This document shows positions 7,325 through 64,000 of a DNA stretch of 64,000 bases, piece after piece. The position numbers and the translations under genes are program-made. Each line of letters opens with the position of its first letter. Position 1 is the first letter of the stretch. Below the pieces are notes generated by a model. That model searched no databases. It was not told the DNA's origin and worked only from the letters and a program-made list of their open reading frames with translations. The DNA is from an uncultured Acidobacteriota bacterium (GTDB lineage Bacteria > Acidobacteriota > JAQAZP01): the NCBI GenBank assembly GCA_963836075.1, contig CAWIIB010000009.1:1504001-1568000 (forward strand), given 5' to 3'.

Positions 7325-7954
7325 ATGCGCAGAAGGATACCCCAGAGACTCATGACCGCGTGCAGCGCCGCATTCCTGTTCTGCTGTTCATATTCCTGCG
7401 GCACGGGGTACGTGCCGCGGAATGGCGACATCATCTTCCACACCTCCCGTTCCGCCCAGAGCGAGGCCATCCAGAAGGCGACCAGCTCGCCCTACAGCCA
7501 CATGGGGATTGTTTACGTCCAGCAGGGCCGGGCATTCGTGTTCGAAGCCGTGGAGCCGGTCAGATCGACACCGCTGGACGAGTGGATCGCCCGCGGGGTG
7601 GACGGAAAGTACGTGGTGAAGCGGCTGCGTAAAGCTGACCGGCTGCTGACCTCCGGTGCTCTGGCGCGGATGCGGGAGGTTGGCGAGGCGTTCGAGGGGC
7701 GGCCCTATGACCTCTACTTCGAGTGGACCGATGATCGGACATATTGTTCGGAACTGGTCTGGAAAGTCTATCAGCGTGCCCTGGGGCTCGAGATTGGCGA
7801 GCTGCAGTGCATGAGCGAATTCGACCTCACCGATCCACTGGTCAGAGAAAAGGTGGAGGAGCGCTGGGGTGGCACGCCTCCCGGGAACGAGATCGTCATA
7901 TCCCCGGAAGCGATCTTCCGCAGCGACCTGCTGGTGACCGTTGCCGAGCGGTAG
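7325..7954 (+). CDS. YiiX/YebB-like permuted papain-like (NlpC/P60) enzyme
   Basis: GDIIFH, YSHMGIV, FEAVEPV, PYDLYFEW, YCSELVWK (His before Cys, i.e. permuted order). Confidence 0.9.
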   Translation: MRRRIPQRLMTACSAAFLFCCSYSCGTGYVPRNGDIIFHTSRSAQSEAIQKATSSPYSHMGIVYVQQGRAFVFEAVEPVRSTPLDEWIARGVDGKYVVKRLRKADRLLTSGALARMREVGEAFEGRPYDLYFEWTDDRTYCSELVWKVYQRALGLEIGELQCMSEFDLTDPLVREKVEERWGGTPPGNEIVISPEAIFRSDLLVTVAER

Positions 7955-8016
7955 GTGTCTGCTTCTTTGGTCGGGATGATGGATGACAAATACGTGAAAT
8001 GTCGAGGAGATGGATA

Positions 8017-8421
8017 ATGAATAGAAAACTACTAACAGGAATTCTAATTGCATCTGGGATAGTGGTGACAATTTTTAATCCACTGATAAGTGGGATACTC
8101 GCAGTAGGAGTCTGGATATACCTGGTCGGGGCAGTTCGGAAACAAGAGAATAGTGTTTTCAATGACCAGATGACGCCATTGTTGACCGAAGGGCACTTCA
8201 ACTGGTTGAAAACATTGTTGATAGTATCTGGGATATCATTTCTTGTTTTTATTGTCTCTGCCATTGCGCACAATGTCCTGGAGGAGGAATTCTTCTCTCT
8301 TGTTATCGCGCTAGTGGCGGTATGGGTACTGGTTCTATCAACTGCTGGCGGTCTGGTTTTGTTTCTCAGCGGACGACAAAAGTACCGGAATACAGAGATT
8401 CCTGCAAGTGGATCGATTTAA
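8017..8421 (+). CDS. Hypothetical multi-TM membrane protein, AT-rich
   Basis: GAGGAG RBS; ~4 hydrophobic segments; visibly lower GC than neighbours. Confidence 0.7.
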   Translation: MNRKLLTGILIASGIVVTIFNPLISGILAVGVWIYLVGAVRKQENSVFNDQMTPLLTEGHFNWLKTLLIVSGISFLVFIVSAIAHNVLEEEFFSLVIALVAVWVLVLSTAGGLVLFLSGRQKYRNTEIPASGSI

Positions 8422-8427
8422 ATAGAC

Positions 8428-8465
8428 AGATAACAACTGAATGCACCTGAACGCAAATGCGCTCA
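8428..8465 (+). mobile_element. Truncated integron attC-like site (left arm plus central hairpin)
   Basis: AGATAAC-AACTG-AATGCACC then TGAACGC-AAAT-GCGCTCA just after a stop codon; the right-arm L'/R' boxes are missing. Confidence 0.4.
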
Positions 8466-8487
8466 CTTACAGATTGGGGAGAACACC

Positions 8488-9111
8488 ATGAGGATGAACT
8501 CGTTGATCATTCTCCTCGGGTTCCTGCTCTGCACTGTGGCCTGCGCCCCGTGGCAGATCGGGGCCGAGAAGGACGTGGTGAAGAACGGGATCGAGTTCGA
8601 GACCTTCAAGGAGGAGAAGGACGGTTCCAAGCTGGGCATCCTTGCGGGTGACACGGTGATCGACGGCTGGCCCTGCAAAAAGGGGTTCATCGTCTTCCAT
8701 GCCGACTGGAGCCTGGATGAACTGCTGCTCTCCCGGGATTACCAACGGAACGGGATCTCCATGCCCGCGGGCACCTGGGTCTTTCCCGACGCGCAGGGGA
8801 ACCCGGGGATCTGCATGTTTCCCCATGATGTTGAGATTCAGGGCCATCTCTGCCGGGGCAGCCGGGCGGGGAAGGAGGGCGTGATGACCTCCTTCCATCC
8901 CGGCGGTGAGGTGAACCAATACTTCTGCCGCGAGGATCCCGTGATCGACGGCGTGCCCTGCAAGGGCAGTGTCTTTGCTTCGGGGATCCATCTTTATGAA
9001 AACGGCCGGCTGGCACAGTGCGAGCTGGCCGGGGGCGCCACGATCGGCGGCGTCGAATACGCCAGGGGGGCCGTCCTCCGCTTCGATGAAGCTGGGAATG
9101 TGCTCGAATAG
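8488..9111 (+). CDS. Hypothetical repeat lipoprotein (MORN/YwqK-like short repeats)
   Basis: Lipobox TVAC; five ~32-aa units (VIDGWPC, EIQGHLC, VIDGVPC, TIGGVEY ... F/Y-xx-G-x-L/V). Confidence 0.7.
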   Translation: MRMNSLIILLGFLLCTVACAPWQIGAEKDVVKNGIEFETFKEEKDGSKLGILAGDTVIDGWPCKKGFIVFHADWSLDELLLSRDYQRNGISMPAGTWVFPDAQGNPGICMFPHDVEIQGHLCRGSRAGKEGVMTSFHPGGEVNQYFCREDPVIDGVPCKGSVFASGIHLYENGRLAQCELAGGATIGGVEYARGAVLRFDEAGNVLE

Positions 9112-9144
9112 CATGGAAACCGCCGGCGGACTTCCAAAGATCGG

Positions 9145-9474
9145 ATGGACAGGATGAAACGTGTAACACGCATTATTCGTCGGATGCCATTTTTCCTCTA
9201 TGGACTTGTGGCGATTGGTGGATATTGGCTCATCGGAAGCTTGTCTTCATTCGGCCAGGGGTACGATGATCGTGGTATCGGAACTTTCCTGTTCCTGGTC
9301 TCGCTCGTATGGAATATCGTCGCCTTTCCGTTCTGGTTCGCCACAGAAGCACTGTTTTCGCTGAACGAGGGACACGCCGTTCCCGGCCACGGGATTCTGT
9401 CGATAGCCATCGTGATGCCCCTGCTGCTAATTCTCGATTTTGTATGGCGGCGCTATTCATCCCCGGAGGAGTAA
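9145..9474 (+). CDS. Hypothetical membrane protein (3 TM)
   Basis: Hydrophobic 109-aa ORF co-oriented with neighbours; start could be 9154. Confidence 0.6.
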   Translation: MDRMKRVTRIIRRMPFFLYGLVAIGGYWLIGSLSSFGQGYDDRGIGTFLFLVSLVWNIVAFPFWFATEALFSLNEGHAVPGHGILSIAIVMPLLLILDFVWRRYSSPEE

Positions 9475-9988: not shown

Positions 9989-10639
9989 ATGAAAACCAGG
10001 AAAAACAACTTCGGATTGCAGACGATCTTCTCCATTTTCCTCGGGCTGATGCTTGCCGCATTCGCCGGCATCGGCGTCTATACCTTCCACCCGCCGCCAG
10101 GCGATTACGAGGCGCAGATTCGAGATCTCACCCGGGAGGAACAGGAGATCAGGGACTCGAGCCCGTCGGGTGAGCTGACAGTAGAGGATCGCGACCAGAT
10201 CGATGAAATCAGGAGTCGGCGCAGGGTTCTGTCGGACCAGGCTCTGGAGGACCGCAAGCCGTGGTTCCTGAGCACGAGCATCATCCTCATCGTCTTCTCC
10301 ACGCTCCTCCTGGTTGTGTCGCTGCTGCGGTCGGATCAGCTGCAGGTGATCAGCAGCGGCCTGCTCCTGGGCGGCGTATTCACCATGCTCTACGGTGTGG
10401 GATGGATCGCCTTCACCGGCACATCGGTGCTCCGGTTCCTGGTCATGACGATCGCACTGGTGATTACCGTGGGGCTCGGGTACGTCAGGTTCGTGCGCAG
10501 AGGTAAGACCCCGCCAGCCCCTGGTGGGCAGGAAATGGTCAAGGGTGATGCGCTGGAAGAGATCGAGGACCGGATTCGGAGTCTTGAAGGGCGACTGACC
10601 GAAGCGGCAACTGCGCTCGGACGAAAGGATGATAATTAG
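9989..10639 (+). CDS. Hypothetical membrane protein (TM, soluble loop, 3 TM, coiled-coil tail)
   Basis: GGAGGGG RBS; GIGVYTFHPPP after TM1; ISSGLLLGGVFTMLYG. Confidence 0.75.
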   Translation: MKTRKNNFGLQTIFSIFLGLMLAAFAGIGVYTFHPPPGDYEAQIRDLTREEQEIRDSSPSGELTVEDRDQIDEIRSRRRVLSDQALEDRKPWFLSTSIILIVFSTLLLVVSLLRSDQLQVISSGLLLGGVFTMLYGVGWIAFTGTSVLRFLVMTIALVITVGLGYVRFVRRGKTPPAPGGQEMVKGDALEEIEDRIRSLEGRLTEAATALGRKDDN

Positions 10640-10667
10640 AGAAGGTCCTGAGGGATCTCGCATTCCA

Positions 10668-10696
10668 TTGACAAAGCAGGGAGGTGGGTTTAAGGT
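10668..10696 (+). promoter_or_regulatory. Sigma70-type promoter
   Basis: TTGACA(10668)-N17-TAAGGT(10691) upstream of the radical SAM gene. Confidence 0.6.
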
Positions 10697-10751
10697 TCTC
10701 GCTTGGCTGGTGGATCGCTCTGTATTTCCGCCGGCAGCGAGGTTTTTCCGT

Positions 10752-12242
10752 ATGAGCAAGCGCACTATCACCGCGGCCATCGTCATCCCGGCCTGGACCC
10801 ACCAGGAATCGCACCCCACCGCCCTGCGCAAGCTGGGTGCCGGGTTCTGGCCCCCGCTGAACCTGATGTATCTGGCCTCCCGGCTGCAGGCCGACGGCCA
10901 CAAGGTGGTGATGCTCGACGGCGGTTTCTACGCCCACGACGACCTGATCCGGACCGTGGCCTCCCACGATCCCGACCTTATCGGCATTTACTCCAACACC
11001 GTGCTCTGGAACGGGTCGCGGCAGACTGCGGAGGATCTGCGGGCCCTGCTGCCCGGTGCGCACATCACCTTTGGCGGGCCGCTGCCCTCGGTGATCAAGG
11101 AGGAGCACCTCGCCAAGTGCCCGGCCGGCGACTCGGTGGTGGTCAACGAGGGCGAGGAGACCCTGGCGGAGATTGCCGGACGGCTGGCCGAAGGAGAAAC
11201 CCTTGAGGGCGTGGCCGGCACGGTGTATCGGAACGGCGACGAGATCCTGCGCAACCCCGAACGGGACTACATCCACGACCTGGACAGCCTGCCCTTCCCG
11301 GCTCGCGACCTGATCGACCACAAGGACTACATCCCGCCCATCGGGCTCTATACCAAGCGGCCGCTGACCACCATGCTCACCAGCCGCGGCTGCCACCACA
11401 AGTGCATCTACTGCTACAAGTGGGGCGGGGACAACATCCGCTACCGTGACCCGGTGCCGGTGGCCGAAGAGATGGAACTGGTGGTGCAGCGGTACGGGAT
11501 CAAGGAGATCCGTTTCTGGGACGACACCTTCACCGCACGCAAGGACCGGGTGCTCCAGCTGGCCGAGGAGGTGGCCCGGCGCAAGATCAAGGTCGACTTC
11601 AGCATCGCCACCCGGGCTGACTGCCTGGACCGCGAGGTGCTCAAGGCCCTGAAGCAGATGGGCTGCTACAACATCATGATCGGGGTGGAGTCGGGGGTGC
11701 CGAAGAACCTCAAGACCCTGAAGAAGGGCGAATCGAGGGAGACGATCCGCGAGGGCGTGGCCATGGTTCACGAAGCGGGGATCCGCACCTTTCTCACCTC
11801 GATGTTCGGGGTGCCGGGCGAAACCTACGAGGACGGCCTGGAGACCATCGAGTTCGTCAAGAGCCTCAAGGGGGACGCGTCGCACTTCTTCACCCTCTCA
11901 CCCTTCCCCGGCACCGAACTCTACGAGAACCTGGATGAGTTCGGCAAGGTGGTTCCCGGCGACTACTCGGTTCTGGGGATGCACACCCTCTGTTTCGCCC
12001 CGCACACCCTGACCTTCGAAGAGATCGAGTCGCTGCGGCGCCGGGCCTTTCTGCAGACCACTCTCATCCCCTCCTTCATGATCAAGCGGGTGCTCAAGCT
12101 CCGGTCCTTTGAGGAGGTGAAGATCCTCGCCCGGGCGGGCAGCACCATCTTCCTCGCCATGGTGCCCCAGATGATGAAGTCACTGGTCCGCGGCCGCAAG
12201 AGCAGCAAGTCGGACGTGCAGTTCGGTGGCAAATTAACCTGA
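10752..12242 (+). CDS. B12-binding-domain radical SAM protein (class B methyltransferase-like)
   Basis: N-terminal PPLNLMYLAS..FGGP cobalamin domain; LDSLPFPARDL; TSRGCHHKCIYC (CxxxCxxC); FWDDTFT; IGVESG. Confidence 0.92.
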   Translation: MSKRTITAAIVIPAWTHQESHPTALRKLGAGFWPPLNLMYLASRLQADGHKVVMLDGGFYAHDDLIRTVASHDPDLIGIYSNTVLWNGSRQTAEDLRALLPGAHITFGGPLPSVIKEEHLAKCPAGDSVVVNEGEETLAEIAGRLAEGETLEGVAGTVYRNGDEILRNPERDYIHDLDSLPFPARDLIDHKDYIPPIGLYTKRPLTTMLTSRGCHHKCIYCYKWGGDNIRYRDPVPVAEEMELVVQRYGIKEIRFWDDTFTARKDRVLQLAEEVARRKIKVDFSIATRADCLDREVLKALKQMGCYNIMIGVESGVPKNLKTLKKGESRETIREGVAMVHEAGIRTFLTSMFGVPGETYEDGLETIEFVKSLKGDASHFFTLSPFPGTELYENLDEFGKVVPGDYSVLGMHTLCFAPHTLTFEEIESLRRRAFLQTTLIPSFMIKRVLKLRSFEEVKILARAGSTIFLAMVPQMMKSLVRGRKSSKSDVQFGGKLT

Positions 12243-12277
12243 CAGTTCAAGATGTTTTCCGAGGCCCGATGGCGGCG

Positions 12278-12433
12278 TTATGGTGCCGCGGCGGTCACCG
12301 TGCAGGTGGCCTGGTCCGTGTCGCCGGACGAGGGGTATGGCGGCTGGTCATCGGGAACGACGATGGTGGCGGAAAAGGCGGCGACCGGGATGAGCAGTGC
12401 GACGATGGAGATAATCAGTACGTTCTGGCGCAT
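12278..12433 (-). pseudogene. 51-aa mini-gene: signal peptide fused to the last ~22 aa of the shared C-terminal domain (internal-deletion remnant)
   Basis: MRQNVLIISIVALLIPVAAFSATIVVPDDQPPYPSSGDTDQATCTVTAAAP with AAGAGG RBS. The tail matches PPYPPAGDTDTDSCTVTGVAP of the gene ending at 63361. Confidence 0.75.
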
Positions 12434-12507
12434 GACTGACCTCTTTGGCAAGTGATTCAGCGGCGGATCAGGGATACCGGCCGCCGCAGGTATTGTCCAT
12501 GAATATG

Positions 12508-12536
12508 AATATAGGGTGACGGGGGGCAATAGTCCA
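12508..12536 (-). promoter_or_regulatory. Putative sigma70 promoter of the mini-gene
   Basis: Minus strand TGGACT-N17-TATATT. Confidence 0.45.
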
Positions 12537-12574
12537 CAACGTGTGGCGCGGAGGATCTGAGCCGGGGCGTTCGA

Positions 12575-13204
12575 CTACTTCTGGCTGGCCTGGCGTTCCT
12601 TCAGCTCTTTCAACTGCGGCTCGGCAAACTCCTTGTAGCAGTCAGGACAGATGGAGTGGCTGAAGATGGCCTCGCTGTGCTCGCTGACATAACTCTCCAC
12701 CTGCTGCCAGTAGTTGCCGTCGTTGCGCACTTTTTTGCAGTAGGAGCAGATGGGGAGCAGTCCCTGCAGGGTCTTGACCCGGGAGAGTGCCACTTCCAGC
12801 TCGCCCACTCTCTGGGCGAGGTTGTCCTGCAGTTCGAGGATCCGCTGGCCCACCTGGACGCGGGCTTTCAGTTCCGGCGGGTTGAACGGCTTGGTGATGT
12901 AGTCGTCCGCACCGGCCTCCAGGGCGGTGACCAGCTTGTCGATGTCGTCCATCGAGGTGAGGATGATCAAATACGGCCTGGCCTGGCCCCGGTTCAGCCG
13001 GCGTATCCGGCGGGCCACTTCCACGCCGTCCATCTCGGGCATCATCCAGTCCATCACTGCCAGGCGAGGGGCATCCTCCTCCTGCATGATCTGCCAGGCC
13101 TCTCTCCCGTTGCGGGCCAGTTCAACTTCGAATCCCCATTTTTCCAGGGTCTTGGTCAGCAACCGCTGAAAGACAGGGTCGTCCTCTGCAAGCATCATCC
13201 TCAT
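12575..13204 (-). CDS. Response regulator with C-terminal Cys-rich (CxxC...H...CPxC) domain
   Basis: REC: AEDD, MDWMMPEMDG, TKPF; tail LLPICSYCKKVRND..YW...FSHSICPDC. Confidence 0.9.
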   Translation of the reverse strand: MRMMLAEDDPVFQRLLTKTLEKWGFEVELARNGREAWQIMQEEDAPRLAVMDWMMPEMDGVEVARRIRRLNRGQARPYLIILTSMDDIDKLVTALEAGADDYITKPFNPPELKARVQVGQRILELQDNLAQRVGELEVALSRVKTLQGLLPICSYCKKVRNDGNYWQQVESYVSEHSEAIFSHSICPDCYKEFAEPQLKELKERQASQK

Positions 13205-51016: not shown

Positions 51017-53027
51017 CTACGGCTTGATGCCTGTCACCACACTGGCATCCAGATCGGTATCCCCCGACGGCGGATAGGGCGGTTGGTTAAAGGGCGCCGG
51101 AGTCACGTCCTCGGCCTCCAGGGAGAAGATGTTTTTCCCCACCAGCGACAGCGCCAGCGGGATATTCTGGTTCCAGCTGGTGGTGTAGAACGACCCGGCA
51201 GTGATGTTGGCGTAGCCCCGCCTCCAGTTGGTCACCGACGTGCCGTTGGCCAGGGCTATATTGATCCTCGCCGCCATCCGGCGGGTCAGTCCGGAATAGG
51301 TGTTGGCCAGCCTCACCGTCATCTGGGTGGTGAAGGGCAGGGTGCCGGAGGAGGGTGAGCAGGTCAGGCTGACGGAGATGGTTCCCGTCGTATTGAGCAG
51401 CACCGAGACAACGCCATTGGTAATATTCGCCGTGGCCAGGTCGAGGTGACCGTCCAGGTCCAGGTCGTCGATGAGCACCGATTCCGGTCCGCCTCCCACG
51501 CCGTAGCTCTCCATCACCGGGAACGTGCCGTCCCCCTCCCCGTAGAGCACGGTGACGCCGAGACCGCCCTGGCACGGAACGGCTGTAGTCGACCCGGGGC
51601 AGGAAAGTGCCGTCGCCCAGGCCGAAGAATACCGATACGCCGTGGATGTATCTGTTCACTACGGCCAGATCCGTGTTGCCGTCACCATCGAGATCTTCAA
51701 GGGCCGCGGCCATTCCCGTTGAACCGATGGTGTCGTCGATGGCGATAACCGGTTGATACGTTCCATCCCCGTTGCCCATCAGCAGGGAGAGATAGCCGAT
51801 ATACGAAGCGGCCACCACCAGGTCCGGGGCTCCGTCCCCATCGAGGTCGCCGCTGGTCACGAATCTGGCGTAGCTCCTGGCGCCGAAATCCGACGCTGCC
51901 GGGTACGAGCCGTCGCCGCGGTTCAGGAATACCGAGACATTGTGACTCAGGTTGTTCGCCGTGGTGATGTCGAGAGAGCCGTCATTGCCCAGGTCATCGA
52001 GCTCGAGGGTGATCGGGCTGTTCCCGGCCACATATCTAACCGGCGTCTGGAAGGTGCCGTCACTGTTGCCGAAGTGCAGCGAGATGCTGTCCCAGTCGTC
52101 ATTGGCGGCGGCCATGTCCGGGGTGCCGTCCTGGTCCAGATCACCGATGGCCACCGACATGATGCCGCCCTCGTTGGCGACGGTGTAAGGGGCCTGGAAG
52201 GTTCCGTCGCCGTTGCCTGGCAGCACGGCGATATCCCCGGTGGCGGCAATGGCCAGGGCCAGGTCCTGCAGGCCGTCGCCGGTCAGGTCACCGATGGCAA
52301 CGTCCTTGACCACCGTGAAACCGCCGAAGGTCACCGGCATCTGGAACGTGCCGTTGCCGTTGGCCATCATCACGGAGATGGTATTGGCCTGGGAGTTGCC
52401 CACCACCATGTCCGGGTGGCCGTCATCGTTCAAATCACCGATGGCCAGTGAATCCGGAAGATCATCCACCGGATAGTGCAGACCGCCCTGGAAGGTGCCG
52501 TCACCGTTGCCCAGTCGCACCGTGACCGTGTCGGCGTACGCGTTGACCACCACCAGGTCCAGGTTGCCGTCACTGTCCAGGTGATGGAGGGCGATGGCGG
52601 AGGGGTAGTCACCGGCGGCGATCTCCACCGGATCGGAGAAGGTTCCGTCGCCATTGCCCATGAAGACCCAGGCGCTGTCGCTGTCACCCACCGCTACGGC
52701 CAGGTCGGCATTGCCGTCGTTGTCCACGTCACCGATGGCTGCGCCCGTGGGGTAGTCCCCGATGCCGAGCTCCTGTCGCTGGCCGAACTCACCACTCCCG
52801 GTGCCTGTCAGGATGAAGAGGTGGTGATCGTTGTAATTGGCCGACACCGCTGCCAGGTCGGGAATCCCGTCGTTGTCCAGGTCGCCCACGGCGTGTGACT
52901 GGACGTAGTTGCCCACCCGGTAGTTTCGCCGGGATTCGAACGTTGCGGCGCTCACCGTTGCCGACAGGATCAGACCGCATGAAACAAGGGCGATGAGGAA
53001 TGGCAATGAACAGGCGCGGGCTTTCAT
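51017..53027 (-). pseudogene. FG-GAP repeat protein A with shared C-terminal domain; ~0.5 kb internal deletion causes a frameshift
   Basis: Nine repeats in ORF 53027-51087. At ~51584 the frame switches (...VDY|AVPCQ...) to the last repeat plus CTD (ORF ending 51017). 2011 bp versus ~2505 bp for paralogues. Confidence 0.75.
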
Positions 53028-55529
53028 GGTTTTATCCCGGTCAGCACACTGGCGTCCGCGCCGATGTCACCCGACGGCGGATAGGGCGGCTGGTTGAACG
53101 GCGCCGGAGTCACGTCTTCGGCTTCCAGTCTGAAGATGTTGTTCCCCACCATGGACAAGGCCAGCGGGATGTTCTGGTTCCAGTTGGTCGAATAGGACGA
53201 CCCGGCCGCGATGTTGGCATAGCCCCGCCGCCAGTTGGTTACTGCCGTGCCGTTGGCCAGGGTGATATTGATCTGGGCCGCCACCCGGCGAGTCTGGCCG
53301 GAGTAGCGGTTTTCCAAAGATACCGATATCTGGGTGGTGAAAGGCAGGGTGCCCGAGGAGGGCGAGCAGGTCAGGTTGGCGGATATCGTTCCGCTGCGGT
53401 TCAGCAGAACCGAAACGTCGTCACCGTGATAGTTCGGGGTCACCAGGTCTGTCTTGCCGTCTCCGTTCAGGTCGGCCACAGCCAGCGACCAGGGCCGTAC
53501 GCCGACTCCGAAATGCACGGCCGGATCGAAGGTGCCGTCCCCCACTCCCGGCAGTACCCGAGACGTTTGCACTGAACTGGTTGACCACCGCCAGGTCGGG
53601 CGAGCCGTCGTCGTCCAGGTCACTGATGGCCACCGCCTCAGGGTGTCTGCCGGTGGGGTAGTCGACGGCAGAGCCGAAGGTGCCGTCCCCGTTCCCCGGC
53701 AGCACCGACACATCATAGCTGTTCGCGTTGACCACGGCCAGGTCGGCCGTGCCGTTGCCATCCAGGTCGCCGGCGGCGATGAAGACCGGGTCCCAGGCCG
53801 CCAGCGGGAACTGGACAGCGGTGGCAAAGGTCCCGTCGCCGTTGCCGAGCAATACGGATATGTCGCCGGACTCATAGTTGGCCGCAGCCAGGTCCGGGAC
53901 CTCGTCGCCATTGTAGTCGTCCACCGCCACCGCCCGGGGATCGGTTCCGGCACCATACGCCACCATGGCGCCAAATGTGCCGTCACCGTTCCCGATGAAG
54001 ATGGAGAGTTCATTGCTTCCAGAGTTGGCCGTGATCAGGTCGGGAATACCGTCCTGGTCGAGATCATCGATGGTGACATGTTGTGGTCCACCGACCACCG
54101 CATAGTCAACGGCGGCCTGAAAGCTGCCGTTTCCCATGGACAGAAGTACCGAGATGGTCTGGTCCCCGCCATTGGCTGCCACCAGATCGTGATTTCCGTC
54201 ACCATCCAGGTCGCCGGCGGCAACCGAATTCGGATGTTCGCCAACATCGTGGAATGTGGCCGCCTGGAAGGTGCCGTCCCCGTTTCCCAGGAGAACGGAG
54301 AGGTTGTCGTCGAGGCTGTTGGCCACGGCCAGGTCCTGAATCCCGTCGCTGTTCAGGTCACCCACGGCCACCGAGAACGGTTCTTCACCCGTTTCATACC
54401 TTGACTCGACCGGAAAGGTGCCGTCCCCGCTGTTGAAGATCACTGATACAAGAAGCCCCCCCCAGTTGCCCACCGCCAGGTCGGGATCACCGTCCCCGTC
54501 CAAATCATCGATGGCCGCACACCTCGGCGAGGAGCCGGCCAGATACTCCGCGGCCGTGGCAAATGTGCCGTCCCCGTTCCCCGGGAAAACAACGACGCTT
54601 TCGCTGCCAGAGCTGGTCACCACCAGGTCTCTGGAATCGTCACCGTTCAGGTCAACGATAGCGATTGAAGTCGGGGCTGTCATGGATCCGAAGATAAACG
54701 CGGTCGCCCCGAAGGTGCCGTCACCGTTGCCCGGGAGGATGGACAGGGAATCGCCGAGGAAGTTCACCACGGCGAGGTCCAGATGGCCATCGCCATCGAG
54801 GTCGCTGGCGGCGGCATCGTATGGCCTGTCGCCCACCACATAGTCCACCATCGCTCCGAAGGTCCCGTCACCGATGCCGGGGAGGACCGAAACCTTGCCG
54901 TTGTCCTGATTCACCACCACCAGGTCGGGAACAGTATCACCATTCAGGTCCTCGGTGAGCACGTCCACGGGGGCAGGACCAACGGGAACGTTCATCGCCG
55001 TGGAGAAGGTGCCGTCCCCCACGCCCAGGAACACCGACAGATCGTCCGAATAGCTGTTCCCGGTAACCATGTCCGGATGACCGTCGCCGTTCAGGTCGTC
55101 CACGGCCATTGCCACGGGAACGGAGCCCGCGGCGTAGGTCACGGCATCGGCGAATGTCCCGTCCCCGTTGCCCAGGAACACCGAAGCGGTATCGGTCCAC
55201 CCGCTGGCCACAGCCAGGTCCGGCACCTTGTCGTGGTTCAGGTCGGCGATGACCACGTCTTCGGGAGCATTGCCGGCCGTGTAGTAGACGGCGGGCTGGA
55301 AATAGCCGCCGCCCGTTCCCAGCAGGACGGCGATACAGTCGTTTGGTGGAATCACCGTCACCAGATCGCGAATGCCGTCACCATCCAGGTCGCCCGCCAC
55401 CACCGCGCTGGCCCCGCCGTTCAGCAGGAAATCGAGCCGGGCCTCGAACAGTTGAGCGCTCACTGTCGCTGTAAACATGACGGAAAGCAGGAGCGAGACG
55501 ATGATGAACAGGACATTACGTTTTTTCAC
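53024..55529 (-). pseudogene. FG-GAP repeat protein B (14 repeats plus CTD); +1 frameshift, real or sequencing error
   Basis: GTG start with GAGGAG RBS. Extra G in TCGGGTA (plus strand ccc, 53557-53559); removing it restores NVSVLPGVGDGTF. Length 2506 = 3n+1. Confidence 0.75.
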
Positions 55530-55564
55530 GGCGACTCCTCGAATCAATGAATATCGATGTGGAC

Positions 55565-58078
55565 CTACGGTTTTATCCCGGTCAGCACATCGGCATTCAC
55601 GCTGGTGTCCCCCGACGCCGGGTAGGGCGGCTGGTTGAATGGCGCCGGGGTGACGTCTTCGGCTTCCAGGGTGAAGAAGTTGCCCCCCACCAGTGACAGG
55701 GACAGTGGGAGGTTCTGGTTCCAGCTGGTCGTGTAGGACGATCCCACTGCGATGTTGGCGTAGCCCCGCCGCCAGTTGGTGACCGAGGTGCCATTGGCCA
55801 GGGCGATGTTGATCTGTGCCGCCACCCGCCGGGTCTGCCCGCCATACATGTTTCGCAGCTCCACCGTCATCTGGGTGGTGAAGGGCAGGGTACCCGAGGA
55901 GGGCGAGCAGCTCAGGTCGGTAGAAATCGTGCCTCTGGTGTTAAAAAGAATGGAAACGTCGTGGCTGTCGAAGTTGCCCACGGCCAGGTCGGGTTTGCCG
56001 TCCTCGTTCCAGTCGGCGACGGCGATGGTTCTGGGGTCGGCGCCGGCGCCAAACGTGATGACATCCTTGAATGAGCCGTCCCCGATGCCCCGGTAGATGG
56101 AGACGAGGCTGTCGGTGCCGTTGGCCACTGCCAGGTCGGGGTGGCTGTCACCGTCCAGGTCTTCGATGAGAATCGAGCGGGGCTCCATGGCGGAATCGTA
56201 AGTCACCCCCGTGCCGAACGTGCCGTCCCCGTTGCCGATGAACACCGATACGGCCCATAACAGGCCAATTGCCACCTGGTTCGACACGGCCATGTCGGGA
56301 ACACCGTCATGGTTCAGGTCCTCGATGGCGATGCCATTGGGGACATTGAATGCGCCGTAGGTCGCCGGCCACTGAAAGGTGCCGTCCCCGTTGTTCAGCT
56401 GAACCGAAACATCCCACTGTCCCGAGGTTGCAACAATGTCCTGGTCGCCATCACCATCCAGGTCCTCAAGAGCGACGAATCTGGACCATGCTCCAAGGCC
56501 GATGGAAGTGGCCGGCTGGAAGGTGCCGTCCCCGTTGCCGCGGAAAAACACCAGCGTGTCAAGCTGGTATTTGACCACGACCAGGTCTGTGGCACCGTCA
56601 TTATCCATGTCGGCGAGGGCGAGACCCTGGGGATAGGTTTCGATGGGGTAGTCCACCGCGGCCATATACGTGCCGTCGCCGTTGTTCAGCAGAATTGAAA
56701 CGTCAAAGCTGTATTCATTACCCATGGCCAGGTCCGGGGCTCCATCCCCGTTTAAATCGGCGGCGGCGAGATATGCCGGCCCATCGCCCACCGCATAGGT
56801 CACCCCTGGTTGGAAAGTGCCGTCTCCGTTGCCCCGCAGGGTCAGGATCTGATCATCCTGGTAGATTCCCAGTGCCAGGTCCTGGTGTCCGTCCCCGTCC
56901 AGGTCAAGGGCGGTTACGGACGTTGGAAAATCTCCCACTGCAATGTTCAGGGGAGACTGAAATGAGCCATTCCCCTTGCCCAGCAGTACCGAGGTTGTAT
57001 CAGACCACCGGTTGGCCGTGGCCAGGTCCAGGTTGCCGTCTCCGTTAAAATCATCGATTCCGATGGAACGGGGCTCATTGCCAACACTGAAATTTTCGGC
57101 GGCCTGGAATGTTCCGTCACCGTTGTTCAGCAACACCGAGATGTCATCACTGCCGACATTGACCGAGATCAGGTCCGGGTGACCGTTGTTGTCCAGGTCT
57201 CCAGTGGCCATCTCGATGGGATAATCGCCGGCCGCGAAGGCGGTCGGGCTACCGAAGGTGCCGTCCCCCATACCCCAGAGAACTGAGACGGTGGCGACAG
57301 TGACGTTAGCCACGGTAAGGTCCAGCACCCCGTCATCGTCCAGGTCGTCGAGAGCCACGCTGATCGGGTGTTCGCCGGCGGCGAACGCGGTCCCGGCTCC
57401 GAAGGTGCCGTCTCCAGCACCGAGAAAAACCGAGACGGTGGTGCCGCCATCGTAGCCAATGACCAGGTCGATGTTTCCGTCACCGTCCAGGTCACCGGCG
57501 GCCAGGGACCAGGGATCGTTGCCCACGGCGTAACTCACTCCCGGTTGAAAGGTGCAGTCACCATTGCCCTGTAGAATGTAAAACTCTTCCGGAGATTCAT
57601 CGATGGAGGCCAGGTCGGGGATCCCGTCGTTGTCGAAGTCGCTGATAACGGTATAGAGAGGCTGGCTACTCACGGTCGCTTCGATGGGGGCCTGGAATGT
57701 CCCGTCCCCGTTGCCCGGGAAGACCGCGATATCGTGGTCATAGGAGCCAGTCACCACCAGGTCGAGAATGCCGTCGTTGTCCAGATCCCCCAGGGTACTG
57801 GACCAGGGGCCGTTCCCCACCGGGAACAGGGTTGAATTGCCGAAGGTGCCGTTACCGTTGCCCAGCAGGATGGCAACTGCCCCGTCAGCCTCCGCCGTCC
57901 CGACCAGGTCCGGACGGCCGTCCCCGTTCAGATCACCGGTGACGACGGATGCCGGGTTCCAGCCGATGGGATAGTCGACTCGTGTGTCGAATATCGTCGC
58001 TTGCGCGGTCGTTACCGGAAGGAGAAGGCAAGCGGCAGCTAAGATCGTGATCATCGCACTTTTGAATGTTTTACTCAT
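55565..58078 (-). CDS. FG-GAP repeat protein C (14 repeats plus CTD), intact
   Basis: Signal peptide, 14 DLxxDGxxDL repeats, CTD ending TGIKP. Confidence 0.9.
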   Translation of the reverse strand: MSKTFKSAMITILAAACLLLPVTTAQATIFDTRVDYPIGWNPASVVTGDLNGDGRPDLVGTAEADGAVAILLGNGNGTFGNSTLFPVGNGPWSSTLGDLDNDGILDLVVTGSYDHDIAVFPGNGDGTFQAPIEATVSSQPLYTVISDFDNDGIPDLASIDESPEEFYILQGNGDCTFQPGVSYAVGNDPWSLAAGDLDGDGNIDLVIGYDGGTTVSVFLGAGDGTFGAGTAFAAGEHPISVALDDLDDDGVLDLTVANVTVATVSVLWGMGDGTFGSPTAFAAGDYPIEMATGDLDNNGHPDLISVNVGSDDISVLLNNGDGTFQAAENFSVGNEPRSIGIDDFNGDGNLDLATANRWSDTTSVLLGKGNGSFQSPLNIAVGDFPTSVTALDLDGDGHQDLALGIYQDDQILTLRGNGDGTFQPGVTYAVGDGPAYLAAADLNGDGAPDLAMGNEYSFDVSILLNNGDGTYMAAVDYPIETYPQGLALADMDNDGATDLVVVKYQLDTLVFFRGNGDGTFQPATSIGLGAWSRFVALEDLDGDGDQDIVATSGQWDVSVQLNNGDGTFQWPATYGAFNVPNGIAIEDLNHDGVPDMAVSNQVAIGLLWAVSVFIGNGDGTFGTGVTYDSAMEPRSILIEDLDGDSHPDLAVANGTDSLVSIYRGIGDGSFKDVITFGAGADPRTIAVADWNEDGKPDLAVGNFDSHDVSILFNTRGTISTDLSCSPSSGTLPFTTQMTVELRNMYGGQTRRVAAQINIALANGTSVTNWRRGYANIAVGSSYTTSWNQNLPLSLSLVGGNFFTLEAEDVTPAPFNQPPYPASGDTSVNADVLTGIKP

Positions 58079-58135: not shown

Positions 58136-60638
58136 TTATGGCTTTATGCCAGTCACTATTCCGGCATCAATGTCGGTGTCGCCCGATGGCGGGTAGGGCG
58201 GCTGGTTGAAGGGCGCCGGGGTGACGTCCTCGGCCTCCAGGGTAAAGAAGTTGCCCCCCACCAGTGACAGGGACAATGGGAGGTTCTGGTTCCAGCTGGT
58301 GGTGTAGTGCGACCCTGCCCCGATGTTGGCGTAACCCCGTCGCCAGTTGGTCACCGAAGTGCCGTTGGCCAGGGTGATGTTGATAAGTGCCGCCATCCGG
58401 CGGGTCTGCCCGGGGTAGCGGTTCTCCAGCTTCACCGTCATCTGGGTGGTGAAGGGCAGGGTGCCGGATGCAGGCGAGCAGGTCAGGTCGGCGGATACCG
58501 TGCCGCTGCGGTTGAGCAGAACCGAAAGATCGTTGCTGAAATAATTCGCCGTCACCAGGTCAGCTTTCCCGTCATTGTTCAGGTCGGTGATGTCCACCGA
58601 GAGCGGTTGTCTGCCCACTCCGAAAGCGATGGTCGGATTGAACGATCCGTCCCCGTTGCCCGACAGCACCGAGACATCGAAACTCCACTCGTTGGCCACG
58701 ACGACGTCCGGGATGCTGTCATTGTCGACGTCATCGATGGCCACCGAGAAAGGCTGGCAGCCGGCTCCGGTACTCGATGGCCGCCCCGAAGGTGCCGTCA
58801 CCGATCCCCGGCATCACCGAAACAGATTGCCGGTGCTGGTTTGCCACCACCAGTTCCGGGGCGCCGTCGCCGTCCAGGTCGCCGGCCGCGATTGAACGGG
58901 GATTCCACACGTAGAGCAGGTACACCACCGGGGTCATGAACGTGCCGTCGCCATTGCCCAGCAGAATGGAGACTTCCCCGCTGCCATAGTGTGAGGTCGC
59001 CAGGTCCGGGGCACCGTCGCCGTCCAGATCTTCGATGACAAAGGTACTCGGAGCTTCGCTGAAGCTGTAGCTCACTGCCGCCCCGAAGGTGCCGTCCCCG
59101 TTGCCGAGAAATACCGTGAGCTGTCCAGGGTAGTTGCTCACCACCAGGTCCGGGGCGCCGTCCGCGTCCAGGTCTTCAGCTTTGATCGAGGAAGGGCTGT
59201 CCAGGGATCCTAAGGTCTCAGCCGGCTGGAAAGACCCGTCACCATTGGCCAGCAGGATTGAAATATTGTCGGAATAGTAATTTGACACGGCCAGATCGGG
59301 ATAGGAGTCCCCATCCAGGTCTTCGATGGCTACGGATCTGGGGTGATCGCCCACAGGGTAGTCCACGGCAGATTGAAATGTGCCGTTGCCGTTGCCCAGG
59401 CGCACCGAGACGGTATCGACATCGGTGTTGACCACGGCCAGGTCCGGGAAACCGTCACCATCCAGGTCAGCCGGTTCCATTGAAAAGTCGCCGGGAGCGA
59501 TACCGACCCGTTCGTCCACCGGGAAGGTGCCGTCTCCGTTCCCCAGGTGCACGGAGACCATATCACTGTTGTAATTGGTCACGGCCAGATCCGCCGTTCC
59601 GTTTCCGTCAAGGTCGCTGAAGGTGATTGACGATGGGAAATGCCCCACCAGGTACTCTCCAGCCGCCACGAATGTGCCGTCGCCGTTTCCTGCAAGCAGC
59701 GTGACCAAGTCTGCGCCGCCACCGAGGATGACGGCCAGATCCTGGTCGCCGTCCTGATCCAGGTCTTTGGTGGCCACGGCCGAGGGCGTGTCGCCAACCG
59801 CGATGTGCAAAGCGGCCCCGAAGGTGCCGTCGCCGATTCCCGGCAAAACGGAAACGTTGTCACCATTCTCGTTGGCGGTCACCAGGTCAGGAATACCGTC
59901 GCCATTCAGATCGCTGACGGCAACCTCCCGCGGTCTCTCATCCGTTGCGTACTCCACCGCGGCCACGAAGGTGCCGTCGCCGTTGCCGATGAGGATCGAG
60001 ACGCTGTCGCTGAACCAGTTGGCCACGGCCAGGTCGGGTGCCCCGTCGTCATCCAGATCATGGATGACTACGTTCTCGGGATATGATCCAACCGCATAGA
60101 TGACTGCTGTCCCGAAGGTGCCGTCACCGTTGCCCGGATGAACCGAAATAGCGTGATCACCGGAGTTCACCACCACCAGATCCGGGATATCGTCGGCATC
60201 CAGGTCATCAATGGCGATTGAAGCGGGATGCTCGCCAACCGCGAAGTTTGTTGACGCCTGAAAGGTCCCGTCGCCGTTGCCCGGCAGGACCGAGATGGTA
60301 TCGTCATAGCCATTGGCCACCACCAGGTCGGGAATACCATCTCCGTCCAGGTCGTTGATCACCACGGTATTCGGACCATCACCGGTGCTGTAGTGCACTG
60401 CCTCCTTAAAGGTGCAGTCACCGATGTTGAGCAGCACGGAAACATCGTCGGTGCCCAGATTCGCGACGACCATGTCAGAATGGCCATCACCATTGAGGTC
60501 GCCAGTATCCACTGACAGCGGGTCGTCACCCACCATGAAGCCCAGACGTGCTTCGAAAAGCCGGGCACCCGTGGCCGGACTGGCAGCGCAAAGGAACAGC
60601 AGCAGGATGAAGAACAGACAGGTATGGCGAATGCTCAC
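58136..60638 (-). pseudogene. FG-GAP repeat protein D (14 repeats plus CTD); +1 frameshift, real or sequencing error
   Basis: GTG start with GAGGAG RBS. Extra C in TACCGGA (~58769-58770); removing it restores EYGAGCQPFSVAID. Length 2503 = 3n+1. Confidence 0.75.
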
Positions 60639-60818: not shown

Positions 60819-63320
60819 TCACGGCGCCACCCCGGTTGCCGTGCAGCTGTCCGTGTCCGTGTCCCCCGCCGGCGGGTAGGGCGGCAGGTTGTAGGGGGGT
60901 GGCGTGACGTCGGCCACGGTCAGGTCGAACAGATTCACTCCCGCGAGGCTGGGCAGGTCGGGGATTGTCTGTGACCACTGTTTGATGTAGACCTCCCCCG
61001 CCATGACGTTCTGCCAGCCCCGGCGCCAGTTGGAATAGAACTGACCGCCGGCCGTGGTGACATCGATGATGTACTGCAGGCGTCGGGTCTGGTCCTGACA
61101 GAGGTTGGTCATGGTGGCCTGGAACAGCGAGGCGAAGGGCAGGGTGCCTGAGGAGGGCGTGCAGGTCAGGTCCGCCCTGATTGTGGGCCAATAACCCACT
61201 CTTGCGTTGAGTAACACCGAAAAGTTTCCCGTATGTCGATTCACCACCGCGAGGTCGGGGCTGTCGTTGCCGTCCATATCTTCCAAGGCCACAAATCGCG
61301 GTTCGGTGCCGGCAAGGTAATTGGCCTCCAAAGTGAATGTGCCATCGCCGAATCCGGTGAGGACCGAGACAGACCCGCTCATTAAGTTTGCCACAACCAG
61401 ATCCAGTCGTCGGTCACCATCCAGATCTTCTATTGCGATCCAACGCGGATCTTTTCCGACCGAGTAGTGTGCCGCAGGAAGGAACGTTCCGTCCCCGTAG
61501 GCCAGCAACACGGATATAGAGTCTCCGCCATTATTCGCCGTGACCAGGTCGCTGTGGCCGTCGTCATTCAGATCATCGATGGCGATCGATAGGGGACTTT
61601 CGGCGACGCCGTATGACACGGCCGTCTGGAATGAACCATCCCCAACGCCCAGCAAGACGGAAACGTCGTCACTCTCCCAGTTCGCCGTCACCAGATCGGG
61701 GATGCCATTACCGTCCAGGTCATCAACTGCAATCGAATAGGGATTCATACCGGCATCAAAGTACACCGGCGATTGGAAAGAACCGTCCCCGTTGGCCAGC
61801 AGGACGGAGGCGGCCCCGGTACTGTTTGACGTGACCAGGTCGGGTTTGCTGTCATTATTCAGGTCGTTGATGACGATGGTTCGGTTTCTCCCCGGAACCT
61901 CATAGTCCACAGTTGCTGCGAAGGTGCCGTCCCCGTTGCCCAGAAGGACTGAGACATCATAACTGCCAACGGCAAGGTCAGGGATACCGTCTGCATTCAG
62001 GTCCCCGATGGCCACCGAATACGGATATAGCCCGGCACTAAATGTCATTCTCGTTCCGAAGGTGCCCTCTCCCTGGCCAAGACGCACCGAGACGATGGAG
62101 CCATAAATCAAGGTCTCGACGATGTCTGGAATCTCATCACCGTCAAGATCACCTATGGCAACCGATGTGGGTGTGTATCCTTCGTATTCAACACCGTAAT
62201 GAGTGGCGGAAGGGAAAATGGGGTCGTCGCGGATGGTCAGGATTGTGAAAGAGTCGATGACCCCATTGGTCACCACCAGGTCCGGAATACCATTATTGTC
62301 CATGTCCCCGATGGCCATCGCCAGGGGTGAGTATCCCGCAGGATATCGGCCACCGCCGGAGAGTGTGCCGCTCGCATTACCCAGGCCCACCAGGACATCA
62401 TATGAATCCTCGCTGGCTACCGCCACGTCAAGTTTGCCGTCCTCATTCAAATCGCCGATGGCCACCGAGGTCGGCTCATCTCCTGCCAGGTGAAAATCGT
62501 CGCGGGGAAAGCCGCCGGTCCCATCACCGTAGTGTATCGACAACTCGTCACTGAATGAGTTGGTCACGGCGAGGTCCGGGTAACCATCGCGGTCCACATC
62601 GCCGATGGCTATATCGCTGGGCCTGCGGCCCGCGACAACGGCAACCGGGGGCAGGAAACTGCCGTCTCCACTGCCAATGAACACCCAGACATTATTTCCG
62701 CTGAAAATGTTGTTCGCCACGGCAAGGTCCGGCGTGGTATCGCCATTGAGATCACCGATGGCAACCGCTACAGGATAGTCTGCTACCGGATAGTGAACGG
62801 CCGTTGGAAACGTTCCATCACCGGTACCCAAAAGAACGGAGATATCATCACTGTCGATATTCGTTGTCACCAGGTCCAGATTACCATCACCGTCCAGATC
62901 GTCGATGGCCACCGACCAGGGACCAGTGCCCGTGGAAAATGATCCGCCCACCTGAAATGAGCCGTCCCCAACTCCCAACAGGACAGAGACATGGTCGCTG
63001 TCCTTGATTGCAAAAGCCAGATCCGGAACGGTGTCATTGTCCAGATCACCGATGGCCACTCCAGACGGCATACCACCAACCCCGTAATTCACAGCGGCCA
63101 TGAATGTCCCGTCACCATTGCCCAGCACAACGGAGAGATCAGAACTCTGGTGATTTGCGGTGACAACATCAAGATTGCCATCATCATTCAGATCTTCAAC
63201 GGCCACCGAATATGGCTGCTCGCCTACATCAAAGAACATGCTGGAATTGAATATCTGCCCCTTGGCTGCCGGTGCTTGAGCGAGAAGCACGGCGAGGGCC
63301 AGGATGCCGAATTTGCTCAT
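60819..63320 (-). CDS. FG-GAP repeat protein E (14 repeats plus CTD subtype 2), intact
   Basis: GAGGGG RBS, signal peptide, 14 repeats, CTD ending DSCTATGVAP. Confidence 0.9.
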   Translation of the reverse strand: MSKFGILALAVLLAQAPAAKGQIFNSSMFFDVGEQPYSVAVEDLNDDGNLDVVTANHQSSDLSVVLGNGDGTFMAAVNYGVGGMPSGVAIGDLDNDTVPDLAFAIKDSDHVSVLLGVGDGSFQVGGSFSTGTGPWSVAIDDLDGDGNLDLVTTNIDSDDISVLLGTGDGTFPTAVHYPVADYPVAVAIGDLNGDTTPDLAVANNIFSGNNVWVFIGSGDGSFLPPVAVVAGRRPSDIAIGDVDRDGYPDLAVTNSFSDELSIHYGDGTGGFPRDDFHLAGDEPTSVAIGDLNEDGKLDVAVASEDSYDVLVGLGNASGTLSGGGRYPAGYSPLAMAIGDMDNNGIPDLVVTNGVIDSFTILTIRDDPIFPSATHYGVEYEGYTPTSVAIGDLDGDEIPDIVETLIYGSIVSVRLGQGEGTFGTRMTFSAGLYPYSVAIGDLNADGIPDLAVGSYDVSVLLGNGDGTFAATVDYEVPGRNRTIVINDLNNDSKPDLVTSNSTGAASVLLANGDGSFQSPVYFDAGMNPYSIAVDDLDGNGIPDLVTANWESDDVSVLLGVGDGSFQTAVSYGVAESPLSIAIDDLNDDGHSDLVTANNGGDSISVLLAYGDGTFLPAAHYSVGKDPRWIAIEDLDGDRRLDLVVANLMSGSVSVLTGFGDGTFTLEANYLAGTEPRFVALEDMDGNDSPDLAVVNRHTGNFSVLLNARVGYWPTIRADLTCTPSSGTLPFASLFQATMTNLCQDQTRRLQYIIDVTTAGGQFYSNWRRGWQNVMAGEVYIKQWSQTIPDLPSLAGVNLFDLTVADVTPPPYNLPPYPPAGDTDTDSCTATGVAP

Positions 63321-63360: not shown

Positions 63361-64000
63361 TTACGGCGCCACCCCGGTTACCGTGCAGCTGTCGGTGTCC
63401 GTGTCGCCTGCCGGCGGGTAGGGCGGCTGGTTGTAGGGCGGCGGCGTGACGTCGGCCACGGTCATTCGGAACAGGTTGGTCCCCTCCAGGGTGGGCCAGG
63501 CAGGAATGTTCTGTGACCACTGTTTGGTATAGACCTCTCCGGCCTGGACGTTCTGCCAACCACGGCGCCAGTTTGAGTAATACTGCCCTCCGGCCAGGGT
63601 GACATCGATGGTGTATTGGAAGCGCCGAATCTGACCGTCGTAACGATTGGTCATGGTCGCCTGGAAGAGGGAGGCGAAGGGCAGGGTGCCTGACGATGGA
63701 GTACCGGTCAGTTCGGCCGAGATCGTGCTCATTTCGGGATCACTGGTGTTCATCAGTGTTGTGATCATCGGGGTTCGACTAATAACCACGAGGTCCGGGT
63801 CACTGTCATTGTCCAGGTCACCGATCGCTACAAACTGACTTGCCTGGCCGGCACCGTAGCTCACCGACGGCTGAAAGGTCCCGTCCCCGTTACCCTGCAG
63901 CATTTCAAGATAGCCATACGTTAGCACCACGGCCAGGTCCGGAATGGTATCTCCGTCCAGATCACTGATGGCGATGCAATGAGGAAAGAAACTTGTGCTG
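63361..64000 (-). CDS. FG-GAP repeat protein F (5'-truncated by window edge), CTD subtype 2
   Basis: Last repeats (GDLDNDSDPDL) plus CTD ending DSCTVTGVAP. Confidence 0.85.
   Translation of the reverse strand, partial: STSFFPHCIAISDLDGDTIPDLAVVLTYGYLEMLQGNGDGTFQPSVSYGAGQASQFVAIGDLDNDSDPDLVVISRTPMITTLMNTSDPEMSTISAELTGTPSSGTLPFASLFQATMTNRYDGQIRRFQYTIDVTLAGGQYYSNWRRGWQNVQAGEVYTKQWSQNIPAWPTLEGTNLFRMTVADVTPPPYNQPPYPPAGDTDTDSCTVTGVAP

Follow-up and report, generated by a model that had tools for sequence, protein, structure and literature searches.

The open reading frame at positions 12278 to 12433 on the minus strand of the window (the entire 64-kb stretch of DNA analyzed here), which comprises 51 codons and a stop, is in all likelihood the remnant of a secreted beta-helix gene of approximately 512 codons that ended in a C-terminal domain (CTD) and lost its interior in a single deletion of 1383 nt, and it is most likely functionless. 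This mini-gene is colinear with both ends of a full-length gene found between the same neighbors in a related genome (contig L001, positions 9151..7613), and across the related genomes one locus was encountered in three states, i.e., interrupted by a nonsense codon at full length, reduced to an in-frame fragment, and empty. As such, the mini-gene appears to represent ordinary, if unusually clean, gene decay, the endpoints of which are explained by two conserved Gln-Pro motifs, and the 51-aa frame should be flagged in annotation as a remnant, not as a novel small protein or RiPP precursor. Of greater interest than the mini-gene is the CTD family to which its tail belongs, a large and uncurated family located at the extreme C-terminus of very diverse secreted passengers.

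The mini-gene, its signals and its retained tail

The open reading frame listing places the frame at positions 12278..12529 of the minus strand from a TTG start, within which an internal ATG at position 12433 gives rise to a 51-aa protein, MRQNVLIISIVALLIPVAAFSATIVVPDDQPPYPSSGDTDQATCTVTAAAP, identical to a predicted protein in a public protein set (P0001). The protein is laid out as a signal peptide followed by ATIVVPDDQP and a 22-residue tail. A Shine-Dalgarno-like AAGAGG, read from the sequence, is located 6 nt 5′ of the ATG (12440..12445, minus strand), and a sigma-70-like promoter match, TGGACT-17-TATATT, lies between the response regulator stop and the mini-gene frame (12508..12536, minus strand). 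One such site was observed near the frame versus 0.2 expected from shuffled sequences, and the hexamers are kept in L001 as TGGACA-17-TATATT (alignment A1). A Sec signal peptide, MRQNVLIISIVALLIPVAAFS, is likewise predicted from the sequence (12371..12433, minus strand), and its cleavage would be expected to occur after AFS. Each of the elements of the original prediction, namely, a 51-aa frame with a ribosome-binding site, a putative promoter and a signal peptide, was accordingly found on the minus strand (12433..12278).

The mini-gene is flanked by two genes which served as synteny anchors. Its stop codon is separated by a 35-nt spacer (12243..12277, strand not applicable), orthologous to the 3′ flank of the full-length L001 gene, from the stop codon of a convergent B12-binding radical SAM gene (10629..12242, plus strand; start codon uncertain), whose product harbors the Pfam Radical_SAM and B12-binding domains; a terminator scan of this spacer returned no terminator-like site. 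A response regulator gene (12575..13204, minus strand) is located upstream of the mini-gene on the same strand. The C-terminal part of this response regulator (residues ~118-209, window 12575-12850, minus strand) is a conserved Cys-rich extension, ..LPICSYCKKVRNDGNYWQQVESYVSEHSEAIFSHSICPDCYKE.., which is not matched by any Pfam family and is almost unchanged in L001 and in L002, the contig of a second related genome. No Pfam family was matched by the 51-aa mini-protein, hence no beta-helix repeat (PF13229), and NCBIfam likewise returned none, while the sole match of an Rfam search of positions 11900-12900 was a sub-threshold one to isrD (20.8 bits versus a gathering score of 37; E=0.2).

The 22 codons of the tail, QPPYPSSGDTDQATCTVTAAAP (12281..12346, minus strand), correspond to part of the Pro-rich loop and the last beta-strand of the CTD sandwich. 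A six-frame search for the expression PYP..GD yielded seven matches in the 64-kb window, namely, the mini-gene and the C-termini of six FG-GAP genes, all on the minus strand, which end at 51017, 53024, 55565, 58136, 60819, and 63361 and whose CTDs occupy positions 51020-51394, 53027-53401, 55568-55942, 58139-58513, 60822-61196, and 63364-63738. The match that had been claimed between the tail and a distant CTD is thus seen in six FG-GAP+CTD genes located at 51-64 kb, in each case at the C-terminus. Within the window, the paralogue nearest to the tail, NQPPYPPAGDTDTDSCTVTGVAP, is the CTD of the FG-GAP gene at 63361..63738 (minus strand), with which the tail shares 15 of 22 residues, versus 16 of 22 with the L001 orthologue. 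The mini-gene and the 63361 gene also have a common stop register, with D/N at position -23 and Cys at -8. When the mini-gene locus was compared with the window by blastn, 30 of 35 nt were identical to positions 63431..63397 in a match which begins exactly at ACCAGCCG, and upstream of that sequence no match was obtained. Homology between the mini-gene signal peptide and those of the FG-GAP proteins was also considered and was dropped on the basis of this missing upstream match, the N-terminus being explained by L001. No further beta-helix N-termini were found within the 64-kb window.

All family-invariant tail residues (Q, PP, Y, G, D, Cys at -8, and the terminal P) are intact in the mini-gene, which displays the complete tail pattern of the CTD family at its extreme C-terminus (N/D at -23, PPY, GD, Cys at -8, and terminal P). 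It covers only the last 22 of the 125 CTD profile positions, the beta-sandwich core of approximately 100 aa that precedes the tail being absent. Variation was apparent among the FG-GAP genes themselves: the four at 51-58 kb end in ..D-A-x-x-(V/L)-TGIKP without a Cys at -8, a residue which is present in the two at 60-64 kb and in the mini-gene. Furthermore, in three of the six FG-GAP+CTD genes the coding sequence is divided between two overlapping frames of different phase (51017-53027, 53024-55547, and 58136-60638, minus strand), with breaks near 51,560-51,600, about 53,560, and at 58,760-58,790. At the first of these breaks, part of a repeat unit seems to be missing, as opposed to a simple homopolymer slip. 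The split genes could be real pseudogenes or could reflect sequence errors.

The full-length orthologue and the deletion junction

Genome contigs were scanned with the radical SAM protein, and 2 related loci were obtained among 22 pattern matches. L001 is a contig of an Acidobacteriota-labelled metagenome-assembled genome (MAG), its radical SAM protein having 91% amino-acid identity to that of the window, and L002 derives from an uncultured-bacterium MAG, with 93% identity. The gene order of radical SAM, response regulator, PNPOx-like, and PMT_2-like is kept in both. Between the radical SAM and response regulator genes of L001, on the same strand as the mini-gene, lies a 512-codon reading frame (9151..7613, minus strand), which begins MRQKLVIISI...ATIIIPDDQPTIQ (the start also being given as MRQKLVIISIFIFVFPGTAFPATIIIPDDQPTIQ or MRQKLVIISIFIFVFPGTAFPATIIIPDDQPTIQAGINAA) and ends in NQPPYPPAGDTGQDSCTVTASAP (also given as ..DVTPAPWNQPPYPPAGDTGQDSCTVTASAP). 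Its product matches the Pfam Beta_helix family PF13229 (E=4.4e-9; 36.6 bits versus a cutoff of 25.9), and its C-terminal 125 residues can be aligned gap-free with the six CTDs of the window, with 54% identity to that of the 63361 gene. The full-length beta-helix+CTD gene that had been suggested as a check on this locus in related genomes was, therefore, found, and the mini-gene occupies the position of its orthologue, between the same anchors and on the same strand.

The N-terminus of the mini-protein shares 18 of 31 residues with the L001 orthologue and retains the signal peptide and ATIxxPDDQP(TIQ), of which TIQ was lost at the junction. Outside the locus, intact homologues are represented by P0002 (511 aa, 69% identity), P0003 (511 aa, 63%), P0004 (506 aa, 61%), and P0005 (513 aa, 57%). 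All four carry PD/N-D/H-QPTIQ near the N-terminus, and three of the four carry WNQPP(Y/F) near the C-terminus, P0004 reading WNLPPY. The assignment of ATIxVPxDxP to beta-helix proteins is borne out by the corresponding N-termini of L001 and P0002-P0005, and the latter, 506-513 aa in length and 57-69% identical, are additional proteins in which this N-terminal motif is joined to the CTD. P0025 (542 aa) and P0054 (730 aa), two beta-helix+CTD proteins of greater divergence, are probably paralogues in the genome of the window, since the longest contig recorded for them has the length given for P0001 (3,516,849). A MAFFT alignment of the mini-protein with its full-length homologues misplaces the signal peptide across the long gap, and DNA alignments were, therefore, used for the junction.

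At the DNA level, the mini-gene locus is accounted for by two blastn matches to L001. The first (window 12700..12342 to L001 9425..9060, 71% over 372 columns) spans the 3′ end of the response regulator gene, the promoter region, the start codon, the signal peptide, and ATIxxPDD; the second (window 12348..12100 to L001 7683..7433, 79% over 252 columns) is unbroken through the tail, the stop codon, the non-coding spacer, and the 3′ end of the radical SAM gene. The two overlap by 7 nt on the window (12342-12348), in agreement with alignment A1, and the junction, ACCAGCCG, which comprises the D-Q-P codons, is located at 12341..12348 (minus strand), with the 5′ end of the full-length gene on its left and the 3′ end on its right. 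Because the second match continues unbroken through the stop codon and non-coding flank, the tail lies in its original place and was not imported from an FG-GAP paralogue. Both flanks of the junction are orthologous to one and the same gene, and the size, phase, and endpoint repeat of the deletion can be read directly from L001: the repeat-to-repeat distance there is 1383 nt, i.e., 461 codons (0 modulo 3), and orthologue codons 32-492, which hold the beta-helix repeats, are missing from the mini-gene.

The L001 endpoints read GAT CAG CCC at the 5′ site and AAC CAG CCG at the 3′ site, giving an exact common run of 5 nt, CAGCC; among 200,000 random endpoint pairs from the same L001 stretch, the probability of sharing at least 5 nt was 0.008. 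The repeat is present at both L001 endpoints and in one copy at the junction, where no bases are inserted. The Gln-Pro dipeptide of the two motifs concerned, P-D/N-D/H-Q-P-T-I-Q and W-N-Q-P-P-Y/F, is conserved in L001 and in most of the full-length homologues. As the two repeat copies are in-phase Gln-Pro codons, the product is in frame automatically, and the open frame is, therefore, no sign of selection. The in-frame collapse of a beta-helix+CTD gene by microhomology deletion that had been postulated agrees with these observations, the mini-gene being equivalent to the L001 gene minus 1383 nt with a repeat at its endpoints. The length of 8 nt claimed for the microhomology held in part: ACCAGCCG is indeed present at 12348..12341, and relative to the paralogues it merely marks where homology begins, while 5 nt are verified against L001, the one available orthologue, whose 5′ site reads GATCAGCCC. 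It is possible that an ancestor with GAC CAG CCG at the 5′ site existed, which would allow the 8-nt repeat.

The state of the locus differs between the relatives. In L001, codon 227 (8471-8473, minus strand) is an in-frame TAA where P0002-P0005 have Tyr, which could result from a single-base nonsense mutation or from a sequence error in the MAG. In L002, only 1 nt separates the TGA of the radical SAM gene from the stop codon of the response regulator gene (L002 2610-2616), and no part of the 333 nt within which the mini-gene lies in the window is present. An intact copy is consequently found at the locus in none of the three genomes (window, L001, and L002). The nucleotide identities of the radical SAM and response regulator genes are 90.9% and 91.4% for window-L002, 88.0% and 87.1% for window-L001, and 88.8% and 87.8% for L001-L002, respectively, which places the window slightly nearer to L002 than either is to L001. 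In this comparison, which has no outgroup, presence of the gene is tentatively favored as the likelier ancestral state.

Origin and fate of the mini-gene

The proposed ancestor is a gene that comprised approximately 512 codons and encoded a secreted protein in which a right-handed beta-helix was followed by an Ig-like domain at the C-terminus, the CTD. A single 1383-nt deletion would have brought codon 31 of this gene (..PDDQP) next to the final 22 CTD codons (QPPYP...AP-stop), having presumably taken place between the two short direct repeats that constitute the in-phase Gln-Pro codons of the PDDQPTIQ and WNQPPYP motifs. The deletion mechanism that we infer fits replication slippage or another microhomology-mediated, RecA-independent process. 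Since the deletion left the promoter-like site, ribosome-binding site, and signal peptide in place, the frame may still be transcribed and translated and may yield an exported peptide of approximately 30 aa, which, without the beta-helix and without all but one strand of the CTD, would most likely be functionless.

One known class of bacterial pseudogenes is formed by deletion between short direct repeats, either through replication slippage or through microhomology-mediated, RecA-independent events. The mini-gene resembles such pseudogenes in that its flanks are colinear with a full-length orthologue, one repeat copy is left at the junction without filler DNA, and the locus has been independently damaged or lost in relatives. 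Unlike typical examples, its repeat consists of the in-phase Gln-Pro codons of two conserved motifs, and the outcome is a tidy in-frame ORF with expression and export signals and a recognizable conserved tail. Right-handed beta-helix secreted proteins (PF13229 Beta_helix and PF05048 NosD) have the mature N-terminus A-x-I-x-V-P-x-x-Q-P-T-I-Q, to which that of the mini-protein corresponds; unlike these proteins, the mini-protein does not possess any beta-helix repeat and would, on this comparison, be a remnant and not a functional member.

It is improbable that the mini-gene is a functional small gene under selection, whose exported peptide of approximately 30 aa acts on whatever recognizes the CTD, as a decoy, competitor, or regulator. 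Such a function would agree with the conservation of the promoter-like site in L001, the good ribosome-binding site and the intact signal peptide, with the retention in the tail of all family-invariant positions and the exact stop register, and with its having been called as a protein in the public protein set. These intact signals and tail residues are, indeed, equally expected of a retained functional small gene, and they may only mean that the deletion is recent. The mini-protein is, however, a singleton: among proteins of 28-90 aa in a set of 5.8 billion proteins, the sole candidate relative was itself. Against longer proteins, 137 candidates were obtained, none at E ≤ 10, in a search whose size, 5.8 billion sequences, prevents a match of 22 residues from becoming significant. 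Further points against a function are the in-frame junction, which follows automatically from in-phase repeats, the confident structural model, in which the tail is an integral beta-strand of the sandwich, and the locus itself, which is interrupted by a nonsense codon in L001 and contains no gene in L002. When the window is compared with L001, the 23-codon 3′ segment (22 tail codons and the stop) has 8 synonymous and 6 non-synonymous codon differences, and the 5′ part (31 codons) has 10 synonymous and 13 non-synonymous ones; these differences reflect past constraint and cannot date the deletion. Use of the mini-protein as a working CTD tag is unlikely according to the model, because the tail that was kept represents a single strand within a folded domain. 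A more specific form of the functional reading, to which we give very little credence, is that the collapsed gene is alive and that its exported 30-aa peptide, consisting of the Pro-rich loop and terminal beta-strand, has been retained for engaging the partner of the CTD. It seems just as doubtful that such a putative peptide would act on that partner by occupying its recognition site or by strand complementation. If it were true, the mini-peptide would be a natural minimal probe for the binding partner of a widespread, uncurated CTD.

The remaining explanations concern the junction and the neighborhood of the mini-gene. That the junction is an assembly artefact, in which a collapse removed 1.4 kb that is really present, is highly unlikely: the 5-8 nt common to the endpoints are by far too few to have misled an assembler, P0001 is recorded on a contig of 3,516,849 bp, and the empty locus of L002 shows that natural loss happens here. 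What could be held in its favor is that three of the six FG-GAP+CTD genes of the window are frame-broken, which could reflect sequence or assembly errors, although nothing direct points to an artefact at the junction. We regard as least probable the notion that the mini-gene is a chimera of a beta-helix 5′ end and the tail of an FG-GAP+CTD paralogue, or else a RiPP-type precursor for the adjacent B12 radical SAM enzyme. The nearly equal similarity of the tail to the 63361 paralogue (15/22 aa) and to the L001 orthologue (16/22 aa) would be compatible with a chimera, but the L001 match that covers the tail extends without interruption over the stop codon and the non-coding 3′ flank and enters the radical SAM gene. 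A small peptide gene next to a radical SAM gene is, similarly, what a RiPP system would present; however, the radical SAM gene is convergent with the mini-gene, and its product is kept at 91-93% amino-acid identity both in L002, where a peptide gene is missing, and in L001, where the 512-codon gene takes its place. Neither co-occurrence nor co-orientation of the mini-gene with the radical SAM gene is, accordingly, seen across the relatives. From the sequence comparisons, we conclude that the mini-gene is probably a recent or neutral remnant of the beta-helix+CTD gene, possibly still expressed.

The CTD family, its passengers and its fold

A profile built from seven CTDs retrieved 497 representative proteins at E ≤ 1e-3 among 1.84 billion representatives, of which 455 were at E ≤ 1e-10 and 348 at E ≤ 1e-30; these 497 clusters are representatives at 50% identity, and the tail statistics derive from the 150 of the 497 that were listed. 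Within the last 40 residues, N-x-P/A-P-[YFWH] is present in 146 of the 150 listed proteins, the other 4 having an internal CTD only. Among the 146 with a C-terminal tail (from the 150 listed of 497), the N is exactly at position -23 in 133 and a Cys is at -8 in 121. A stricter N-terminal beta-helix expression was matched by 8 of the 150 CTD proteins listed.

The Pfam scan covered 84 of the 150 listed proteins, with a family at E ≤ 1e-5 in 43 of the 84. The passengers comprised FG-GAP types (11 proteins), Beta_helix or NosD (9), peptidases (6, namely, three S8, C1, M28, and C25), PQQ propellers (3), Lamin-tail domains (3), and others (11), including GH5 cellulase, BNR, F5/8-C, PPC, fn3, SBBP, and PKD. 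Two proteins of 133 and 146 aa consist of the CTD only and match no Pfam family. The portability of the CTD, which according to the original prediction tags passengers other than FG-GAP proteins, is demonstrated by these full-length proteins with their diverse passengers, but not by the mini-gene from which it had been deduced.

No Pfam or NCBIfam model matched the CTD when whole FG-GAP proteins and isolated CTDs were searched (E up to 0.1 for Pfam and up to 1 for NCBIfam). The motif strings QPPYPP, PPYPPAGD, PPYPPSGD, and NQPPYP were absent from the literature searched, and a search on domain and secretion terms returned nothing whose title and abstract were relevant.

A first AlphaFold2 model of the CTD, from 7 sequences, was of low confidence over the last 25 residues (pLDDT block means of 69, 61, and 36), and a search of the PDB with it gave no fold match at E ≤ 0.001. 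It was superseded by a model from 49 sequences, which is confident throughout (pLDDT 96.5; pTM 0.87) and in which the Pro-rich loop (residues 97-112) is followed by the last beta-strand of the sandwich (residues 113-123); the description of the tail as a structural strand derives solely from this model, according to which the mini-protein would keep half of the Pro-rich loop and the single last strand. With the 49-sequence model, 234 PDB matches were obtained at E ≤ 0.001, all of them generic Ig-like, FnIII, or CARDB sandwiches, among which were RbmA (TM 0.70) and the CARDB domain of PF1109 (TM 0.55-0.59). CARDB-like clusters were also returned by a language-model search with the CTD (scores of 0.91-0.93).

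The type IX secretion CTD (Por_Secre_tail, PF18962/TIGR04183) is a C-terminal cargo domain of secreted proteins. By analogy, the CTD described here is a C-terminal beta-sandwich of approximately 120 aa attached to very different passengers; unlike the type IX domain, its best PDB fold matches are generic Ig-like/FnIII/CARDB sandwiches (TM 0.55-0.70), and the PF18962 and TIGR04183 models did not match the FG-GAP proteins or the isolated CTDs. According to precomputed Pfam assignments, PF18962 or PF13860 takes the place of this CTD in some homologous beta-helix passengers from elsewhere. It is proposed, from its placement in these sequences, that the CTD represents a candidate cargo or anchoring tag with a putative partner. 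One member, P0189, bears a C25 (gingipain-type) peptidase as its passenger. In a further set of members (P0122-P0129, P0132, P0173, and P0247), two stretches match the CTD profile, which suggests the existence of tandem CTDs.
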